From contig CAWHRJ010000014.1 of NCBI GenBank assembly GCA_963831685.1, positions 94,612 to 158,611 of the forward strand: 64,000 bases of DNA, in the 5' to 3' direction. Shown here piece after piece: positions 53,130 through 63,260 of the stretch. The notes beneath the pieces were generated by a model, which worked only from the letters and a program-made list of their open reading frames with translations, had not been told where the DNA came from and made no database searches. Position numbers and translations under genes: made by a program. This DNA comes from an uncultured Pseudomonadota bacterium. GTDB taxonomy: Bacteria; Myxococcota_A; Polyangia; Fen-1088. Each line of letters starts with the position of its first letter. Positions within the stretch are counted from its first letter, which is position 1.

Positions 53130-53286
53130 GAGGGGCCGGAGTCTAGCAGCCCGCGCACGCGCTGGGGCCGATGGCGGCCTGCCACCTACACGTCTGAAGC
53201 CGAACGCCGTCCGTAGTCACTAAGCCGGAGGGGCTCGAGCGTTCTCGACGAGCCCCCGTTCCATTCGTCATCAGCCGGAGGTGTTC

Positions 53287-54639
53287 ATGCGTTTTCGTGG
53301 ATTCGTCGCAGTCGTTGCCTTGTCGGTCATCCCGCTCGCTCTGGGATGCGCTCAATCGGAGATGGGTCCGGGGTCGGTAGGCACCGGAGGGACGACGACG
53401 TCGTCGACGGGCACCGGCGGTTCCGCGACCGGGCGCGGCGGCGCTTCGGCCACCGGCGGCTCTTCGGCGACCGGCGGCGCGCCGGCGACGGGCGGCGCGC
53501 CGGCCACTGGCGGTTCGACCGGCTCGACCGGCGCCGGCGGCGCGGTGGCGACCGGCGGCGTGGTGACGACGGGCGGTTCGACCGGCCAGGGCGGCGCGCC
53601 GACGACGGGCGGTTCGACCGGCCAGGGCGGCGCGGTGACGACGGGCGGTTCGACTGGACAGGCCGGCGCTCCGGCGACTGGCGGCCACGGCGGCGCTCCG
53701 GCGACAGGTGGCTCGACCAGCACGGGTGGCTCGTCCGCCACGGGCACCGGCGGCCACGTCTCGACCGGTGCGGCCGGCTCGTCCGCAGCGGGAACGGGCG
53801 GTCACGTTTCCGGCGGCACAGGCGGCTCGTCGACGGGTGCCGCGGGTCAGGGCTCGAGCGGCAGCGGCACGGCCGGAAGCACGTCGACCGGGACCGGCGG
53901 TAGCACGGCGACCGGCACTGGCGGCCAGACGACCACCGGCACCGGCGGCACCGGCGCGACCACCTCGACCGCGGCCGGGACGATCGTTCCGCTCTACACC
54001 GATCCGAGCGATCCCTCCTGGAACGCGATCATCACCGCCGCCGAGGCGCACCCGACCGTCCACGTCGTCGCCATCGTCAACCCGAGCGACGGCCCGGGCT
54101 CGTCGAAGAGCAGCGCCTACACGGCCGGCATCGCGGACCTACAGTCCGCCGGCATCAAGGTCATCGGCTACGTCGCCACCGGCTACGCCAGCCACAGCAT
54201 CGCCTCGATGGAGGCGGAGATGGACACCTGGAAGTCGTTCTACCCGACGCTGCAGGGGATCTTCTTCGACGAGCAGTCGAACTCCACCGGCGACGTCGCC
54301 CACTACCAGACGCTGTCGCAGTACGCGAAGAGCTTGGGGCTCAGCTACACCGTCGGCAACCCCGGGACCGGCGTCCCGACGGCCTACGTCGGCGCGGTCG
54401 ACACGATGCTGATCTACGAGAGCAACGGAATCCCGCCGATCTCCGATCTGTCGGCCTACTCGGCCTACGCGCCGTCGAACTTCGGCGTCATCCCCTACGC
54501 CGTCTCGTCGATGAGCTCGACGTTCGTCCAGCAGGCCCGGCAATACGTCGCGTACATCTACCTGACCAACGACGACCTGCCGAACCCCTGGGACAGCCTG
54601 ACGTCGTACTTCTCGCAGCTGCTCGGCGCGCTCGAATAG
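53287..54639 (+). CDS. Lipoprotein with a long Gly/Thr/Ser-rich linker and a C-terminal spherulin-4-like (GH135-like) domain
   Basis: Lipobox LALGC. About 220 aa of TGG(S/A) low complexity encoded by 39-bp tandem repeats. The C-terminal 200 aa (IVPLYTDPSDPSWNAI...VAIVNPSDGPG) resemble the spherulation-specific family 4 / Sph3-like fold. Confidence 0.65.
   Translation: MRFRGFVAVVALSVIPLALGCAQSEMGPGSVGTGGTTTSSTGTGGSATGRGGASATGGSSATGGAPATGGAPATGGSTGSTGAGGAVATGGVVTTGGSTGQGGAPTTGGSTGQGGAVTTGGSTGQAGAPATGGHGGAPATGGSTSTGGSSATGTGGHVSTGAAGSSAAGTGGHVSGGTGGSSTGAAGQGSSGSGTAGSTSTGTGGSTATGTGGQTTTGTGGTGATTSTAAGTIVPLYTDPSDPSWNAIITAAEAHPTVHVVAIVNPSDGPGSSKSSAYTAGIADLQSAGIKVIGYVATGYASHSIASMEAEMDTWKSFYPTLQGIFFDEQSNSTGDVAHYQTLSQYAKSLGLSYTVGNPGTGVPTAYVGAVDTMLIYESNGIPPISDLSAYSAYAPSNFGVIPYAVSSMSSTFVQQARQYVAYIYLTNDDLPNPWDSLTSYFSQLLGALE
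53567..53690. repeat. About three 39-bp in-frame tandem repeats (encoding TGGSTGQGGAP/VTT) in the lipoprotein linker
   Basis: Near-identical repeats of GGCGGTTCGACCGGCCAGGGCGGCGCG-CGACGACGGGC. Confidence 0.7.
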
Positions 54640-55514: not shown

Positions 55515-56246
55515 TCAGAGCTTCATCGAGAGCTCGACGCGCGCCGTGCCGCCGTCGGTGACCTTGACGGTCGCGGTCGTGCGGACGCCGGCGCCGGTGC
55601 CGTCGGCCGGCTCGTGCCAGAGCTCGAGAACGTGATCGCCGGGCGGGACGCCCTTGATCGTGAAGCTGCCGTCGGCGCCGGTGACGGCGAAGTAGGGGTG
55701 GTCGAAGACGTAGATCCAGCCGTTCATCCAGGCGTGCCCCGCGTCGCACTGGAGCTTCATGAGCCCCGGCTTGCGCATCGGGACCGGGACCTTCTGCCCC
55801 TTGATCGGCATCGCCACGTTGAACACGGTCATGTCCGAGGCGTTGGCGTGGATGTTGTGCAGGATCGCGTCGTTGTTCATGAGCGAAAGCGGCGTCCCGA
55901 CGGTGAGCGCTTGGACATGCGGCGCGTAGCGGCACTGCTTCTGATCGAGCGCCGCGCCGGCCACCGGCGACGGTTTGCCGTCGAAGTGCGCGTCCTTGAC
56001 GAACACGACGACGTTGCGCAGGCAGCCCCCCTTGCCGACGACGACCGACTCATTGGGCGCGTCGTGGCCGCAGGTGGGGGCGTCCTTGGTGACGGCGTGG
56101 GGGGCGAGCTTGGGCGCCGGTCCATCGAGGTGAACGACCCCGCTGACCGTGCCGTTGGCGAAGGCGGGCGTTCCGCAGGCGAGCAGCGCCACGCCCGCTG
56201 CCAGCGCGGCGATAGGCCTAGCTGTTTCCCTTGGGCTCTTCGTCAT
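55515..56246 (-). CDS. Lipoprotein with a cupredoxin-like type-1 copper site and a carboxypeptidase-regulatory-like domain
   Basis: Lipobox LLAC. Candidate copper ligands H...C-DAG-H-AW-M (ILHNIH...QCDAGHAWM). C-terminal DGSFTIKGVPPGDHVLELW beta-sandwich. Confidence 0.5.
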   Translation of the reverse strand: MTKSPRETARPIAALAAGVALLACGTPAFANGTVSGVVHLDGPAPKLAPHAVTKDAPTCGHDAPNESVVVGKGGCLRNVVVFVKDAHFDGKPSPVAGAALDQKQCRYAPHVQALTVGTPLSLMNNDAILHNIHANASDMTVFNVAMPIKGQKVPVPMRKPGLMKLQCDAGHAWMNGWIYVFDHPYFAVTGADGSFTIKGVPPGDHVLELWHEPADGTGAGVRTTATVKVTDGGTARVELSMKL

Positions 56247-56652
56247 CGGAGAGATAAGCGAACGTGCGGACCAGGTTGACGATCTGCTCGCGCTGCTCGG
56301 CGGAGAGGTCGACGAACTGCACGCCCATGCCGGGATTGATGTTGTCGTAGCTCCCGGGTCGGAACGGGTTCACCCACATCACGCGCCCCTCGAGATCGAG
56401 CCGGGGGCCGCCGGGCGGCGCGAAGCTCAGGTTGAGCTTGGTTCCGGGTGGCTCGGGCGCGTTGGTCCGGATGAAGATCCCCATCGCGCTGATGTCGGTG
56501 ATGTACGCGAACAGGAAGTTGTCGGCGCTCTTGTAGTCGACCTCGATGTCGACGGTGACGCGGGTATGGACGCGGCGATCGCGCCCGCTGCTTCGCCGAT
56601 CGGAGGTGACCGTGACCTCACGCCTTCGCCGATCTTTCCCTCGCCGCGTCAT
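56218..56652 (-). CDS. PilZ-domain protein (putative c-di-GMP receptor)
   Basis: 144 aa. An Arg-rich RxxxR-type stretch (DRRRREVTVTSDRR...RDRRVHTR) followed by DISAMGIF (a D/NxSxxG-type motif) on a beta-barrel core. Sits 14 bp downstream of the GT-C glycosyltransferase gene. Confidence 0.65.
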   Translation of the reverse strand: MTRRGKDRRRREVTVTSDRRSSGRDRRVHTRVTVDIEVDYKSADNFLFAYITDISAMGIFIRTNAPEPPGTKLNLSFAPPGGPRLDLEGRVMWVNPFRPGSYDNINPGMGVQFVDLSAEQREQIVNLVRTFAYLSDDEEPKGNS

Positions 56653-56666
56653 CCTGGAAGCGCAGT

Positions 56667-58992
56667 CTACTTTATTTCGAGCTGGCCGATACGGACGCGA
56701 TCCTGGCCGTCGTTGGGGCCGTCGGTGATCTTGAGCCGCTTCCCCTCGCCGCCGGGCCAGAATCCCATGTAGACGACGTAGGTCCCGGCCGGCGTGGTCA
56801 TCAGCGGCACGTCGGTGTCGTAGTGGTCGTGGACGTACTCGCCCGGCAGCCAGTAGCTGGTGCCGAAGGCGTGGTTGACCGGATCGTGGTCGCCGATCAC
56901 CCGCGGCGCCGCCGGACCGTCGAAGTGGACGAAGATCTTGTAGCCGCCGGGCGGCTTGGCCTTCATGCGGAAGTAGAGGTCGAGCGGGATCTTCCCCGGG
57001 CGCCGCACCTCGGGCGGGAAGCTGGCGCCCACCAGCTCGATCGCGTTCTCGAACGTCGCCGCGAGAGGGATGCGCCAGGTCCAGGGGGGCTTGGCGTCGG
57101 CGGCGCCGGGGCGGCATCCAGACGTCTTTGAGCAACGGGTTCTGATCGCGCTCGCCCGGATCGAGCTGGTTGGTGAGGAGCAGGAAGCGCGACGACGATG
57201 CGTCGACGATGTAGTAGCCGAGCTGCGCCTGCTTGAACGCCGAATCGAGCGGCGCCAGCTCGCTGGCCGCCACCAGCGCGAACACCCGCTGCGGATCGCG
57301 CAAGAACGCGACGACCCGATCCTGGTTCGGCAGGTCGACCAGGTTCTCCTTGCTGTAGAAGGTCGACCCGTGCCCCTCGACGCGGTAGCGCCCGATCTTC
57401 TCGCCGTGCTTGGCGAACCTGGCGTACGACTCGAGCACCGGCTTGAACGACAGGTGCGTCGACAGCGCGGGCACGATCGCCTGCGACAGATAGAAGGCGA
57501 AGAAGATCGCGCAGGCGACCGCCCCCTGCAGACCGTAGCGCCCGAACACGGTCACGGCCCGCACGAGCCCCTGGCGCACGCGACCCCCGGGCGGCGCCTC
57601 CCGGGCGGGGACGCGGCCCAGCGCACGCGGCCGCACGGCCAGCCCGGCGTAGACACCCATCGCGGCCAGGAGCCCGATCGCCAGGATCAGCTCCCCCACC
57701 GCGATGTTCGTCGGCCAGTGCACCTTTTCAAATAGATGGACCGAGGCCAGGTCCTCGGGCGCGAGATAGAAGTCACGCGCGACGACCATCGTCCCGGTCG
57801 CCATCAGGAGACCGGCCACCGGCTCGGGCCGCAGCCCCTCCAGCGCCTCATCGAGAAAGGCGCCGATCGCCAGCGCGATGGCGGGGAGCGCCTCGTAGCG
57901 CGCCTGGCCGAGCACGATGTCCCGGTAGCTCGAGAGCGCGTAGCCCATTCCGGCGAAGAGGAGGAGGTAGAGCTCGACGAAAGCGAGTCGCGGGTTGGTG
58001 CGCGGCACGCCCGCCTCGTCGCCGTCGAGCCGGATGAGCGGCCGGGCCAGCGCGAAGACGGCCACCGCGCTCCAGGGGAAGAGGCCGAAGCCGAGCTCGC
58101 GCACCAGCGCCTCGAAGCTGTGCGCCGGCGCGCCGCTCTTCGGGACTCCCCCCACCAGCCAGGAGTACTTGCCCGCCACGACGTGGAAGAGGCCGCCCGC
58201 GAGCACCGCGACGCCGAGCACGGCGAGGATCGCCAGCGGGACGAAACCGCGCGCGCCCGGTCGCCAGGTGCTCGCGCCCAGCGTCCCCTCGGCCGCGATG
58301 TCGGGGCCGAGGCCTGGCTCGGCCAGTGGCGCCGTGCCGTCATCGATCGCGGCGGTCGGCAGGGCGCGTAGGCCGCGCCCAACCACCAGCGCCAAGGTCA
58401 GCGCCAAGAGCGGCAGCACCAGCCCCGACATCGCGCCCCCGGCCAGGAGACCAATGGCGAGCCCGACGACCCCAAGCACCAGATCGCGGACGCGGCGGCG
58501 GCCGTCGGGCGGCCAGGCGTAGCGCCCGAGCGCGCCCAGAACCAGCGCCAGCCCCGCGATGAGCGGCGCGTCCGAGGTCAGCTGTCGCGCCTCGAGCACG
58601 AACAGCGGCGTCGTTCCCAGCGCCAGCACGGCGAGCAGGCCGGCGCGCTTGCGCAGCAGACCCGCGCCCGCCCAGTAGATCGCCATCAGCGCAACGATCG
58701 CCGAGAGGGCGAAGAAGAGCCGGGCGCCCAGCTCGCTGGCGCCGAAGATGCGGATGCCGAGCGCCGCCATCGAGAGCTCGAGCGGCGGCCGCGCCGCGTA
58801 CTTCCCGGCGACGGTCGGATCGAACAGGCTGTCGGAGCGGGCGATGTCGCGCGCCTGCTCGGCGAGCTTCAGCTCGGAGGGGTCCCAGAAGCCCGAAGCG
58901 CCGAGCCGCGGCAGGCAGAGCGCCAGCGAGAACGCCAGCGCCCAGGCCCACATGGGGACGCGGCCGAGCGCCGCCCGCACGCGATCGATCAT
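56667..58992 (-). CDS. GT-C fold glycosyltransferase, family 39/83 (PMT/ArnT-like), with a C-terminal periplasmic domain; one frameshift near 57110
   Basis: N-terminal multi-TM domain with the conserved first periplasmic loop (GASGFWDPSELKLAEQARDI, DE-like motif), about 11 TM helices, then a soluble domain. The reading frame switches once (ORFs 56667..57032 and the 56218..59247 frame). Confidence 0.7.
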
Positions 58993-59011
58993 CGGCCCGC
59001 CATCGTCGACG

Positions 59012-60077
59012 TCACGCGCCGCCGGCGCCCGCCGTTCCGGCCCGACCGCCCGCCGCGCCCGCGGCGCCGGTCTGGTCCCCGGTGGCCCCCGCGGCGCCGG
59101 ACGCGCCGGCCGCCCCCGAAGCCCCCGCGGCGCCGGACGCACCGGCCGCGCCGCCAGCGCCAGCGGCGCCATGGCCGGCCGCGCCCGCCGCGCCGTTGCC
59201 CGCCGCGCCCGAGCTGCCGGCCGCGCCGCCGCCCTGGCCGCCGGCACCGGGCGGCGTCGGGCAATTCACGCCCGAGGCCACGCAGGTGCACTGCTGCGAG
59301 CCCTTGGCGAAGCGGATTCCGTCGTCGCAGGTGGAAGATTCCGCCGTACGGGTCGCAGTATCCGCCGCTGGCGCAGTCGCTGTTGGCGGTACAGGGGCTC
59401 CCGGCGACGAGAAGCGGCATGCAGGTGCCGGCCGCGCAGTACGAGTTGCTGTCACACGGCGCGGTGGCGCACGACGTTGGCGGGCTGCTGGTCCCCGCGG
59501 CGGTGCAGCTGGAGACGCCCGCGGTGTTCGTTGCGCAATAGAAGTTGGTCGAGCAGACGTCGCCGTTCTCGCTGCAGTGACCGGTGCCCGAGATGGTCGT
59601 GGACGTCGCACACAGATGGTGCGTCTGGTCGCAGATGACCGCTCCGTTGGTGGCTCCGGCGCAGTCGAACTGCGTCGTGCAGGTGTCCATGTCGACCATC
59701 CCCGGGCCCTGGAAGACGTACCCGCAGGCGAGGTCGATGCCGGCCTGCACGGCGGGCGTTATGATCGGGGTGCTGGCACCGTAGGCCGCGTTCAGCTTGT
59801 TGATGCAATCGTTGGTGTTGGCCGGGGTGTAGACCCGCAGGCTCGGCGCGGTGGTCGCCTTGGTCGCCAGCGCCTCGCACTGGCTCTGCTGGTAGGCGGT
59901 GCAGGTCGCTGTCGTGACGCCGCACGCCGTGGCGATCTGACAGACGGCGTTCGCGTAGTTCATGCAGAAGTCTGCGGTCGTAGAGGGTCCGCCGGAGCCG
60001 CCGCCGCTGCACCCGAGCGCGACCAACGGGAGCAGCACCGGGAACAGGGCCGTGCGCAACAACTTCGCTGGTTTCAT
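59012..60077 (-). CDS. Cys-rich lipoprotein with a Gly/Ala-rich C-terminal repeat tail; one frameshift near 59340
   Basis: Lipobox LVALGC. About 30 Cys in the first 230 aa. The C-terminal (GAAGAS)n tail is encoded by 18-bp tandem repeats at about 59090-59215. The two parts are in different frames. Confidence 0.5.
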
Positions 60078-60141
60078 CGCCTCGCCTCCAATGTTCAGAA
60101 GTGGAAAGAGGACGCAGTTTCACCTCGCAGCGTCGGGCGGG

Positions 60142-61101
60142 TCAAGCGTGCATCCGCACATGCAGTGTCTGCCCATGATCGAGGATGGCTAGGCGCCGGT
60201 CGCCGTCGGGGCGGCAGAGGCCCGCGTCGCGCGCCAGGTGCTGCAGCCAGGCGAGCGGCGCGTCGAGCCTTTCGTAGCTCAAAGGGAACGATCCGTAGCT
60301 GGTGGGGATGAGGAGCCGCGCCTTCAGGTCATCAAAGGCGTAGACCGCGTCGAGCGGCGACAGGTGCTCCTCGCGGAACGGGGCCGGCTCGTAGCCGGCG
60401 ATCGGCAGGAGGGCGACATCGGGGTGAAACCGGCGGCCGATCTCGGCGAAGCCCGAAAAGTAGCCGGTGTCGCCTGCCACGTAGGCGCTGGCCGAGGCCG
60501 ACCCTGCGAACGCGCGGACCAGGTAACCGCAGGCGCCGCGGCGAAGGTAGTCGCCGAGGCCGCGCGTCCCGGAGTGGCGCACCGGCACCGCGGTCACCTC
60601 GACGTCGCCTTTGCGATAGCTTGTTCCCGGGTCGAGCTCGACGACGTCGAAGCCGAGCCCGCGCACGAGGCTGGTGCAGCGCGGGGGGACGATCAGCGTC
60701 GCCTGGCGTCCGATCCGCAGGAGGCTCTGCTTCGAGAGGTGGTCGCGGTGGGCGTGCGTGATCAGCACCAGATCGACGTCCTCGAGATCCGCGGCTGCGA
60801 TGCCGGCCGCCTGGACCCGCCGAAGCCCGTAGAAGGAATTCTCCAGCAACGGGTCGCACAGCACCCGTACGCCGGGCGTCGTGATCATGACCGTGGCGTG
60901 GCCGACGAAGGTGATCGAGATCGTCCCCTGCGGCGGGCGCGGCACCGGCGCCGCCTCGACCGGTCGGGTTCCCCGTCCCAGCCGACCGGCCGCGGCCGTC
61001 AGAAAGCGCAACGAAAGCACGCTGGGCCAGACGCTTCGCGCCCGCTTGCGGTGCTCGAAATCGAGGACGCGCGCCCTTTCCGCGGCGGAGAGCGGAGCCA
61101 T
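60142..61101 (-). CDS. Metallo-beta-lactamase-fold hydrolase
   Basis: ITHAHRDH zinc motif plus downstream His/Asp ligands. About 319 aa from the internal ATG. Confidence 0.7.
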   Translation of the reverse strand: MAPLSAAERARVLDFEHRKRARSVWPSVLSLRFLTAAAGRLGRGTRPVEAAPVPRPPQGTISITFVGHATVMITTPGVRVLCDPLLENSFYGLRRVQAAGIAAADLEDVDLVLITHAHRDHLSKQSLLRIGRQATLIVPPRCTSLVRGLGFDVVELDPGTSYRKGDVEVTAVPVRHSGTRGLGDYLRRGACGYLVRAFAGSASASAYVAGDTGYFSGFAEIGRRFHPDVALLPIAGYEPAPFREEHLSPLDAVYAFDDLKARLLIPTSYGSFPLSYERLDAPLAWLQHLARDAGLCRPDGDRRLAILDHGQTLHVRMHA

Positions 61102-61179
61102 CGGCGTTTCGGTGCGCGTCACGGTCGGATAGTAGCGCCGGTCGCGCAGAACACGGTGTTTCGTGCTAAGTGACGGCGC

Positions 61180-62550
61180 GTGACCAGCGACGCGCAGGGG
61201 GCGCCCCAGGCGGCTTCGCAGGCCGGCCGGGTGGTGATTCTCGGGGGCGGGCTGACCGGCATCTCGACCGCCGTCCACCTGCGCGCACCCTGGGTCCTCT
61301 ACGAGCGCGAGGAGCGTCTGGGCGGGCACGCGCGCACCGACGCGCGCGACGGCTGGCGCTTCGACAAGACCGGTCACTGGCTGCATCTGCGCGATCCGGG
61401 CGTCAAGCAGCTGGTCGACGAGCTGCTCCCCGGTCAGATGACGCCGGTCGCGCGGCGCGCGCGGATCTTTTCGCACGGCGTTCTGACCCGCTATCCGTAC
61501 CAGGCCAACCTGCACGGCCTGCCGCCCGAGGTGATCAAGGAGTGTCTGCTGGGCGTGATCGAGGCCAAGGTCTCATCGGCGACGGCCGGTCACGCGGCGG
61601 CGCGGGCGGCGAACTTCGAGGAGTACTGCCTCGCGCACTTCGGCGCCGGGATCTCCAAGCACTTCATGATCCCCTACAACGAGAAGATCTGGGGCGTGCA
61701 CCCGCGCGAGATCACCGCCGAGTGGTGTTCGCGCTTCGTGCCGCTGCCGAACCTCGAGCAGGTGATCGCCGGCGCCGTCGGCGCGGGGCCGCCGGAGATG
61801 GGCTACAACCAGCACTTTCTCTACCCGAAGGCGGGCGGGATCGAGACCTTCACCCGCGCGCTCACGACGCGGATGGCGGGCGGTGAGGTGCACACGCGCA
61901 CGACGCCCGACAGCGTCGACTGGCGGCGGCGCGAGGTGGTGGTCGGCGGCGAGCGGGTCCCCTACCGCGCGCTGGTGGCCACGATTCCGCTCCCCGAGCT
62001 GCTCAAGCGGATGCCGGAGCTGCCGCCGGAGATCGCGCGCGAGGCGGCGCGCCTCCGCTGCACGACGCTGCGCTATCTGAACATCGGCGCGCGCGGCAAG
62101 CCGCGGGAGGACTGGCACTGGATCTACGTCCCGGAAAGGCGATATCCGTTCTACCGGGTGAACGTCTTCTCGACCGCGATGCCCAGCATGGCCCCGGACG
62201 GCTGCTCCTCGATCTGCGTGGAGATGGGCGACCGGGGACCGATCGGCGAGGCGGCCCGGCGCGACACGATGGCGGCGCTGGTCGCGGCGGGGGCGCTCGG
62301 CTCGGCGGAAGACGTGGTGTTCGCCGAAGAGAAGCAGATCGAATATGCCTACGTCGTGTTCGACCAGAACTACTACCAGGCCACGCGGACGATCTTTGGC
62401 TTTCTCGAGGCGAACGCCATTCACCCGCGCGGGCGTTACGGGGCCTGGACCTACAACGCGATGGAGGACTGCGTGCTGGCCGGCCGCGAGGTGGCGGCCC
62501 TCATCGACGGCAGGAGCTCGCCGGACGGCGGCGCGGGGCGCGCGGCGTGA
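61180..62550 (+). CDS. FAD-dependent enzyme of the UDP-galactopyranose mutase (Glf) family
   Basis: N-terminal FAD Rossmann ([10 protein letters not shown]). Blocks resembling UGM: [25 protein letters not shown], and a C-terminal [17 protein letters not shown] parallel to the RFGxWxY...D motif of Glf. Confidence 0.6.
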
Positions 62551-63260
62551 GCGCCGGGGCGCTGCACCTCTCGGTCGTCATCCCCGTCTACAACGAGGAG
62601 GGGATCCTGCGCGGCTCGGTGCTCGAGCTCGAGGAGAAGCTGCGGCGGTTCGGCTGGAGCTACGAGCTCCTGCTGTGCGAGAACGGCTCGCGCGATCGGA
62701 CCATCGAGATCGGCAGGGAGCTGGAGATCGAGCACCCGCAGGTCCGCATGCTCTCGGTCGGCGAGCCGAACTACGGCCTGGCGATGAGGCAGGGCATCCT
62801 CGAGGCGCGCGGGACGTTCGTCATCAGCGACGAGATCGATCTGCTCGACACCGAGTTCTACGCGCGGGCGATGGCCCTGCTCGAGCGGAGCGACACCGAT
62901 CTGGTGGTCGGGTCGAAGGCGATGGTTGGGTCGAACGACCAGCGGCCGCTGTTCCGGCGGGCCGCCACCCGTTTCTACAACGGCCTTCTGCGCGCGGTCT
63001 GCCATTACCCAGGCACCGACACGCACGGCCTCAAGGCGTTCCGGCGTGAGGCGCTGCTGGAGACGGCGCGCCGCTGCGTGCTCGATCGCGACGTCTTCGC
63101 CAGCGAGTTCGTCATCCGCGCCCACCGCGAGGGGAAGAAGGTCGTCGAGATCCCCTTCGCCGTCCGCGAGAAGCGCCCCCCCTCGATCCGCCTGCTCAAG
63201 CGCGTCCCTCACGTCGTCAAGAGCGTGGCCAAGCTGGCCCTCTCCGTCCGCCGCGGGTAG
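62547..63260 (+). CDS. GT2 family glycosyltransferase, Dpm1/GtrB-like polyprenyl-phosphate sugar synthase
   Basis: [11 protein letters not shown], the DXD region (ISDEID) and conserved GSKA...[10 protein letters not shown] blocks. 237 aa with no C-terminal TM. GTG start overlaps the upstream stop (GTGA). Confidence 0.75.

Follow-up and report, generated by a model that had tools for sequence, protein, structure and literature searches.

Gene content of the locus

We analysed a 64,000-nucleotide stretch of DNA from an uncultured soil bacterium (GenBank assembly GCA_963831685.1, contig CAWHRJ010000014.1, positions 94,612 to 158,611 of the forward strand; hereafter the window). The window has a G+C content of ~69%, and its closest relatives are metagenome-assembled genomes of Polyangia (Myxococcota). 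The locus under study consists of two back-to-back modules. The first, on the plus strand, comprises a flavoenzyme of the UDP-galactopyranose mutase (UGM) superfamily and a family 2 glycosyltransferase (GT2); the second, on the minus strand, comprises a NAPE-PLD-like hydrolase, a Cys-rich lipoprotein, a GT-C glycosyltransferase, and a PilZ-domain protein. The GT-C gene thus lies on the strand opposite to the mutase-GT2 pair, with two genes between them. We propose, with a probability of roughly 0.35, that the mutase-GT2 module makes a lipid-linked furanose donor and that the GT-C module is a candidate consumer of it. Gene order was derived from lists of open reading frames (ORFs) together with profiles of G+C at the third codon position (GC3), and features are collected in Table 1.

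A first-pass annotation of this DNA had described a candidate locus for glycosylation of the lipid-linked galactofuranose (Galf) type. All the gene families it named are present where it placed them, although its 1009-residue ORF is not a single gene and its Gly/Ala-repeat protein is a frameshifted tail of another. The mutase-side survey used here covers 83 loci from named genomes and metagenomes (individual loci carry L numbers), and each count is based on the loci with enough flanking sequence.

Table 1 Features of the locus, of its surroundings, and of related loci. Positions are those of the window unless a locus is named.
Feature	Position	Strand	Remarks
UGM-superfamily flavoenzyme, 456 aa	61180–62550	+	predicted nucleotide-sugar pyranose/furanose mutase
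GT2, ArnC/GtrB/DPM1-like, 237 aa	62547–63260	+	Pfam GT2; no transmembrane helix
ArnT-like GT-C glycosyltransferase, 774 aa after correction	56667–58992	-	Pfam PMT_2; apparent +1 frameshift
PilZ-domain protein, 144 aa	56218–56652	-	14 nt downstream of the GT-C stop codon
Cys-rich lipoprotein with Gly/Ala/Ser-rich C-terminal tail	59012–60077	-	lipobox; apparent +1 frameshift
NAPE-PLD-like hydrolase of metallo-beta-lactamase fold, 319 aa	60142–61101	-	Pfam Lactamase_B_2
Divergent intergenic region, 78 bp	61102–61179	.	between the minus-strand operon and the mutase-GT2 operon; start codons confirmed
Lipoprotein without Pfam match	63353 to beyond 64000	+	follows the GT2 gene and runs off the window
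Lipoprotein with long Gly/Ser/Thr-rich linker and Spherulin4 domain	53281–54639	+	PF12138, E=5e-44
Five-gene Myxococcaceae operon	L076 9992–14900		also in L063, L067, L068, L070, L071, L075, L079, L082, L083
Wzx-like flippase	L006 1036–2526; L007 4634–6124; L008 3352–4776		three close relatives; absent from the window

The flavoenzyme is a predicted pyranose/furanose mutase

Judged from its sequence, the flavoenzyme is a predicted nucleotide-sugar pyranose/furanose mutase. Against solved structures, the single sequence matches the UGMs of Trypanosoma cruzi (E=5e-34) and Aspergillus fumigatus (AfUGM; E=1e-32), to which it is ~28–30% identical over the full length. A profile built from 29 family members matches the eukaryote-type UGMs at 1e-83 to 1e-80, while its next best matches are a protoporphyrinogen oxidase (2.5e-14) and the UGM of Escherichia coli (4e-14). 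UGMs are thereby favoured over amine and protoporphyrinogen oxidases by ~70 orders of magnitude in E-value, which bears out the UGM-family assignment made in the first-pass annotation. The profile search it had recommended gave another result: PF03275 (GLF) has no match in the flavoenzyme at E<=0.01, and Pfam gives Amino_oxidase. Likewise, TIGR00031 reaches E=1.4e-4 on the Myxococcaceae orthologue of locus L076, with 20.9 bits against a cut-off of 303.75. Both models describe the bacterial-type UGM clade, and the UGM kinship of the flavoenzyme is visible only against solved structures.

The ligand contacts of AfUGM (Table 3 of PMC3624792) include Y104, F158, and Q107 for the uracil, R182, Y317, R327, Y419, and Y453 for the diphosphate, H63 and R447 for the flavin, and N207 and N457 for the galactopyranose. 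In the flavoenzyme, Y104, F158, Q107, and R182 correspond to Y105, F162, Q108, and R185; Y317, R327, Y419, and Y453 to Y316, R326, Y391, and Y425; and the flavin contacts H63 and R447 to H66 and R419. Equivalents of N163 and W167 of AfUGM are also present. Most of these residues are invariant or nearly so across the 29 family members, and the N207 equivalent, N210, is invariant. Around N457, the flavoenzyme carries a deletion of two residues and the sequence Y-x-x-M-E-D, in which the equivalent residue is ambiguous and which resembles the YxxM[D/E] motif of bacterial UGMs. Owing to this resemblance, sugar specificity cannot be read from the region. A glutamate in place of N457, which would have hinted at an amino sugar, was considered and dropped because of the two-residue deletion and the better alignment with the bacterial motif.

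The flavoenzyme belongs to a large family (more than 1000 clusters at E<1e-30). Hundreds of family members carry the public annotation "protoporphyrinogen oxidase", which very likely mislabels a family of UGM-type mutases in a systematic way. One member, 33% identical to the flavoenzyme, lies in a nonulosonic-acid/methyltransferase sugar cluster (locus L084, which carries P0258) that also encodes a radical SAM protein, NeuB, a CMP-sugar transferase, several methyltransferases, WbqC, and PIG-L; this context suggests that the family serves various nucleotide-sugar pathways. One source labels a Myxococcus orthologue WbyH, with homology to the Yersinia protein resting on the name. In Yersinia pseudotuberculosis, wbyH encodes a predicted mutase, occurs in O-antigen modules with furanose side-branch sugars, and is absent where the furanose form is absent.

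The coupled GT2 resembles polyprenyl-phosphate glycosyltransferases

The GTG start codon of the GT2 gene overlaps the TGA stop codon of the flavoenzyme gene by 4 bp (GTGA), and the two genes are translationally coupled, as the first-pass annotation had stated. Among solved GT2 enzymes, a profile built from 18 orthologues aligns over its full length only with ArnC, including the block RRxxTxxxNGLLR...GTD.HG.KAFRR and the helix motif after the catalytic core, while most others match only its N-terminal part. The invariant residues E96-I97-D98 align with the D-A-D of ArnC and represent a conservative ExD variant of the DxD motif. In a Foldseek search with an AlphaFold2 (AF2) model of the GT2, ranks 1–18 are all polyprenyl-phosphate glycosyltransferases, namely ArnC, GtrB, and DPMS, with a query TM-score (TMq) of 0.62–0.77 over ~235 columns. 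The model has predicted helices at residues 133–152 and 220–235, the first of which aligns with the ArnC motif.

No transmembrane (TM) helix was detected in the GT2, the maximum Kyte-Doolittle (KD) score over 19-residue windows being 0.97. C-terminal TM helices occur in GtrB, ArnC, and archaeal DPMS; human DPM1 and mycobacterial PpgS/Ppm1 also lack TM helices, so their absence here is not disqualifying. The alignments and the model support, but do not prove, a polyprenyl-phosphate acceptor for this enzyme.

The mutase-GT2 pair is conserved and often joined by a deacetylase

The GT2 gene directly follows the mutase gene in 79 of 80 Myxococcota loci. The lineages that carry the pair include Polyangia, Haliangiales, Kofleriaceae, Nannocystaceae, Myxococcaceae (including Myxococcus xanthus), and Bradymonadales, and the pair is also found in relatives at 35–43% identity. 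Clustering of the neighbouring genes shows that the usual third partner is a cytoplasmic deacetylase of carbohydrate esterase family 4 (CE4/PF01522). Of 65 loci, 29 have it straight after the GT2 gene and 41 have it within 10 kb. Among the loci at 40–50% identity, it directly follows the GT2 gene in 22 of 29 and lies anywhere downstream in 24 of 29. This partner suggests an N-acetylated sugar and a logic of the Arn/Lgm type, not plain Galf; the sugar of the pair may be an N-acetylhexosamine rather than galactose.

Myxococcaceae have a five-gene operon encoding the UGM-like enzyme, the GT2, the CE4 deacetylase, a PlsC-type acyltransferase, and a short-chain dehydrogenase/reductase (SDR) epimerase, with gaps of 11–95 nt; an SDR epimerase is also found near the pair in L087. 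The M. xanthus DK1622 orthologue of the mutase, ABF89734.1, is annotated merely as a conserved hypothetical protein. As a separate observation, a GT22 (Alg9-like) GT-C gene lies 7–9 kb upstream of the operon in L063, L070, L076, and L083. A search for multi-TM partners near the pair yielded mostly unrelated transporters. Only in L006–L008 does a Wzx-like flippase gene (Polysacc_synt_3, E=2e-44) stand between the hydrolase gene and the UGM-like gene.

The minus-strand operon encodes an ArnT-like GT-C with a PilZ partner

The window GT-C matches Pfam PMT_2 (E=5e-13), and its sole sequence match among solved structures is ArnT (5ezm, E=0.0025). An AF2 model of P0418, which is 95% identical to it, has a predicted local distance difference test (pLDDT) score of 76; its only full-length matches in the Protein Data Bank are the ArnT structures 5ezm and 5f15 (E=3e-9, target TM-score (TMt) 0.55–0.57). 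The protein contains ~10–13 hydrophobic segments, and in its first periplasmic loop the motif W36-D37-P38-x-E40 (WDPxE) is invariant. Among solved structures, the enzyme matches ArnT and not PMT/GT39, which corrects the earlier label "GT39/ArnT-like". Separately, the C-terminal beta-sandwich of the GT-C (residues ~640–775, at ~56667–57080) weakly resembles the lipid-binding Ig-like folds of NPC2, RhoGDI, and Der p 2 (Foldseek E=5e-3 to 4e-2, TMt 0.4–0.6), which may be generic fold similarity.

The PilZ protein matches Pfam PilZ (E=1e-16) and NCBIfam TIGR02266 (E=2e-21). Its cyclic di-GMP (c-di-GMP) binding motifs are intact, with R27-V-H-T-R31 for RxxxR and D53-I-S-A-M-G58 for DxSxxG, the latter at least 90% conserved among 18 orthologues. 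Its gene follows the GT-C gene in nearly all GT-C loci, and the co-operonic arrangement noted in the first-pass annotation is confirmed. The hydrolase matches Pfam Lactamase_B_2 (E=4e-26), its best solved match being human NAPE-PLD (E=1e-20). In a reverse scan from the GT-C (loci L088–L167), hydrolase, GT-C, and PilZ emerge as a separate conserved trio. The hydrolase gene lies immediately upstream of the other two in most GT-C loci, even where neither a mutase nor a GT2 gene is nearby. The fixed association of a lipid phosphodiesterase-like hydrolase with a GT-C is a puzzling combination in its own right. The Cys-rich lipoprotein, with the lipobox LVALGCSG and a weak Myxo_Cys_RPT match, is confined to the closest clade of the window.

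Linkage of the two modules and the proposed pathway

Only some Polyangia lineages have a GT-C gene within 6 kb of the mutase-GT2 genes (20 of 61 loci), so linkage of GT2 and GT-C is no general rule. Where the GT-C is at least 59% identical to that of the window and the flanks suffice, a mutase or GT2 gene adjoins it, with the exception of L118. The GT-C and the pair adjoin in at least three arrangements: directly divergent (L041–L046), with a metallo-beta-lactamase (MBL) gene between them (L028–L033), and with MBL and lipoprotein genes between them (the clade of the window). This adjacency persists down to ~32% GT-C identity. Six loci (L029, L031, L033, L041, L043, L045) combine GT2, CE4, and GT-C, that is, all components except a flippase.

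In the proposed pathway, the flavoenzyme would turn the pyranose ring of a UDP-hexose (possibly UDP-Gal or UDP-GalNAc) into the furanose form, and the soluble ArnC/DPM1-type GT2 would then load the furanose sugar onto polyprenyl phosphate at the cytoplasmic face of the membrane; family membership and structural comparison point to these two steps. Where present, the cytoplasmic CE4 enzyme would de-N-acetylate the carrier-linked N-acetylated sugar, as ArnD does in the Arn pathway. The lipid-linked sugar would be flipped across the membrane, and the ArnT-like GT-C would attach it to an acceptor in the periplasm, perhaps under c-di-GMP control through PilZ; candidate acceptors are lipid A, another envelope glycan, and the adjacent lipoprotein. 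A lipid-linked furanose route of this kind is plausible but unproven, and partial synteny is the only evidence that the product of the first module may be handed over to the window GT-C. The analysis shows the gene families, the conserved active-site residues, the coupling of the genes, and the synteny; it infers mutase activity, the nature of the sugar, polyprenyl phosphate as acceptor, and most of all the hand-over between the modules. A more specific version is rather unlikely as a whole: that Myxococcota and some distant bacteria make a polyprenyl-phosphate hexofuranose donor (Galf, or GalNAcf deacetylated on the carrier) by means of a eukaryote-type UGM homologue firmly tied to a DPM1/ArnC-type synthase, and that a PilZ-gated ArnT-like GT-C of Polyangia uses this donor to decorate lipid A, an envelope glycan, or the Cys-rich lipoprotein.

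Evidence against the pathway and alternative explanations

Several observations weigh against the proposed pathway. On the GT2 side, the AF2 model is only moderately confident (pLDDT 71). The next structural matches after rank 18, GpgS/MpgS (E ~1e-9, TMq 0.64–0.71), act on soluble acceptors. Additionally, the hydrophobic moment of the top amphipathic segments (residues 134–155 and 212–232) is reached by 14% of shuffled sequences. As for partners, no CE4 gene was found in the 64-kb window, nor does L004, the closest relative (91% identity), have one in the 10 kb downstream, so that the idea of a CE4 gene just beyond the end of the window is not supported here. No GtrA- or ArnE/F-type flippase was found in the loci examined, and the PlsC-type acyltransferase of the Myxococcaceae operon suggests a glycolipid product instead. 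As for linkage, most lineages have no GT-C within 10 kb of the pair, and the most distant group, at 40–50% identity, has none in 24 loci (0 of 24). Conversely, a GT-C clade at 53–58% identity has no mutase or GT2 gene within 10 kb in nine loci with full flanks. Finally, the GT-C reading frame in the window is not intact.

The strongest alternative, to which we give the same weight as to the proposed pathway, holds that the modules are independent and are neighbours through lineage-specific synteny. The pair, with or without CE4, would then make a cytoplasmic-side product of its own, such as a glycolipid that contains a furanose, or one residue of a glycan linked to undecaprenyl pyrophosphate (Und-PP), and the GT-C would use another lipid-linked donor. 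Each module is indeed conserved without the other nearby, the pair stands among unrelated housekeeping genes in many lineages, the Myxococcaceae operon looks like one for the synthesis of an acylated amino-sugar lipid, and mutase genes directly followed by a furanosyltransferase gene are common in O-antigen clusters. Yet the best structural matches of the GT2 are polyprenyl-phosphate monosaccharide synthases, whose products normally feed GT-C enzymes, as in the Gtr, Arn, and DPM systems. The adjacency has also outlasted several rearrangements and persists where the GT-C has diverged deeply, and the Myxococcaceae and L066 carry other GT-C-like genes within 10 kb.

A second alternative concerns the broken reading frames. 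The single 1009-residue ORF at 56218–59247 was rejected as a gene: it reads through the PilZ gene, an out-of-frame stretch, and the GT-C gene, an artefact of the scarcity of stop codons in GC-rich DNA. Inside the GT-C region, the frame indicated by GC3 switches near 57050, and removal of one C from the C4 run at 57108–57111, the site of the +1 frameshift, restores a 774-residue ORF that is collinear with intact homologues of 775–808 residues, one of them 95% identical. In the Cys-rich lipoprotein gene, an extra A lies at ~59339–59340 (GGAATCT in the window versus GGATCT in relatives), and the Cys-rich domain and the Gly/Ala/Ser tail form one continuous ORF in five homologues; a separate Gly/Ala-repeat protein inside the locus was therefore rejected as the frameshifted tail. 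Two +1 frameshifts less than 2.3 kb apart in adjacent genes could mean that the operon is decaying here, with real mutations and a GT-C-dependent pathway inactive in this genome. This is improbable, as both are single-base insertions in homopolymer runs (CCCC and AA), GC3 is high on either side of each, homologues at up to 95% identity are intact, and the genes of this locus are split in a similar way on another long contig, L001, as happens in error-prone assemblies. Because homopolymer insertions flanked on both sides by intact codon bias are involved, both frameshifts are probably sequencing errors; the window probably comes from an error-prone (long-read) assembly, and other ORFs may be affected too.

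It is still less probable that the GT2 acts on a soluble phosphorylated acceptor, like the glucosyl- and mannosyl-3-phosphoglycerate synthases, and that the module makes a cytoplasmic small molecule. The rank of GpgS/MpgS as next-best matches, the missing TM helix, and the absence of a signal peptide from both CE4 and the flavoenzyme would agree with such a role. Against it, ArnC, GtrB, and DPMS fill all the top 18 ranks above GpgS/MpgS, the ArnC alignment extends through the interface-helix motif, and soluble polyprenyl-phosphate GT2 enzymes of the DPM1 and PpgS type lack TM helices too.

Least probable is that the flavoenzyme, instead of being a mutase, catalyses a redox reaction as an amine, protoporphyrinogen, or carotenoid-type oxidase: the Amino_oxidase assignment, the lack of a PF03275 match, and the JGI/NCBI names of homologues ("protoporphyrinogen oxidase" or "FAD-dependent oxidoreductase") point that way, but oxidase matches are no better than 1e-14 and mostly confined to the FAD-binding N-terminus, whereas UGMs match over the full length at 1e-83, the residues contacting the UDP diphosphate and uracil are conserved, and the gene context always consists of glycosylation genes. 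A role in a staphyloxanthin-like carotenoid glycoside was also rejected, as CrtI-type desaturases match only the FAD-binding N-terminus.

Novelty and meaning

Two features are new: the conserved mutase-GT2 module and the pairing of PilZ with a GT-C. To our knowledge, UDP-Galf is the donor in every known case of Galf incorporation, whether in the cytoplasm or in the Golgi, and the only established lipid-monophosphate furanose donors are arabinofuranose carriers of different chemistry. A search of the literature for polyprenyl-, undecaprenyl-, or dolichyl-phosphate galactofuranose found no relevant description, and a search for UGM in Myxococcus found nothing relevant. The claim that such a Galf donor had not been described is consistent with the literature searched, in which no polyprenyl-monophosphate Galf donor appears.

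If the proposed pathway is correct, the mutase and polyprenyl-phosphate GT2 module would be a second independent route for the export of furanose sugars. A eukaryote-type UGM clade, now annotated as protoporphyrinogen oxidase or FAD-dependent oxidoreductase, would also be widespread in bacteria. The more specific version described above, if true, would in addition mean that lipid-linked furanose donors have a new class and that a GT-C under c-di-GMP control is known for the first time. The tight pairing of PilZ and GT-C suggests second-messenger control of periplasmic glycosylation, of which, through such a pairing, we know of no described example. The idea is directly testable in the genetically tractable M. 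xanthus, which has the orthologous operon (ABF89734.1 and its neighbours).

Neighbouring lipoprotein genes

Two further lipoprotein genes flank the locus. The one downstream of the GT2 gene is kept there in a few closest relatives (cluster c15, six loci) and has tblastn matches in L001, L004, and L034. The Spherulin4 lipoprotein, whose gene keeps its place between uvrA and the gene for PilZ in close relatives, may be what the first-pass annotation meant by its Gly/Ala-repeat lipoprotein, although it lies outside the 56218–63260 interval.

Comparison with known systems

The closest known logic is that of ArnC/ArnD/ArnT, which modifies lipid A with 4-amino-4-deoxy-L-arabinose (L-Ara4N), or of its amino-sugar variants of the Lgm/Flm type, with a furanose mutase added. 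The related amino-sugar systems are LgmA/LgmC/LgmB of Bordetella and FlmF2/NaxD/FlmK of Francisella. The GT2 is structurally nearest to ArnC, the only structural match of the GT-C is ArnT, and the CE4 partner belongs to the family of ArnD (CE4/PF01522). As in the Arn pathway, the proposed sugar would be loaded on polyprenyl phosphate, deacylated on the carrier, flipped, and transferred by a GT-C. In contrast to the Arn pathway, a UGM-type mutase takes the place of the ArnA/ArnB sugar-nucleotide steps, the GT2 lacks the two TM helices of ArnC, and the CE4 enzyme is not an ArnD orthologue (PRK15394, E=6e-5 to 0.014, partial). Moreover, no ArnE/F flippase was found, the GT-C comes with a PilZ protein and a NAPE-PLD-like hydrolase, and the modules are not always linked.

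Compared with the eukaryote-type UGMs, the flavoenzyme keeps the histidine loop and the uracil, diphosphate, and FAD contacts. Its family differs in being shorter (~435–456 versus ~480–510 residues), in having TGH rather than GGH in the histidine loop, and in a C-terminal YxxM[E/D] as in bacterial UGMs, with no clear N457 equivalent. With Yersinia WbyH, a predicted CDP-sugar furanose mutase, the likeness is that of a name shared by an orthologue in one source only.

The combination of a DPM1/GtrB-class GT2 with a GT-C recalls GtrA/GtrB/GtrC, CsbB/YfhO, and mycobacterial PpgS/Rv3779. The last of these places galactosamine (GalN) on arabinogalactan, an N-acetylhexosamine ending as the free amine. 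PpgS is, like the GT2 here, a soluble enzyme of ~240 residues, and its model matches the Myxococcaceae orthologue of L076 at E=1e-9; in this comparison of polyprenyl-phosphate sugar systems, NCBIfam scores all lie far below the family cut-offs. Unlike the Gtr-type three-component systems, the present one has no GtrA-like partner in the loci examined, and its nucleotide sugar would first pass through a furanose mutase. Lipid-linked furanose donors are known from the decaprenyl-phosphate arabinofuranose (Araf) of Corynebacterineae and from the TfpW pilin D-Araf system of Pseudomonas aeruginosa. There too, a polyprenyl-monophosphate furanose is used by extracytoplasmic GT-C enzymes, but the donor arises from phosphoribosyl pyrophosphate (pRpp) through DprE1/DprE2-type epimerisation on the lipid, with neither a UGM-type mutase nor a DPM1-type GT2. 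The Araf systems therefore establish that polyprenyl-monophosphate furanose donors exist, including in a Gram-negative bacterium.

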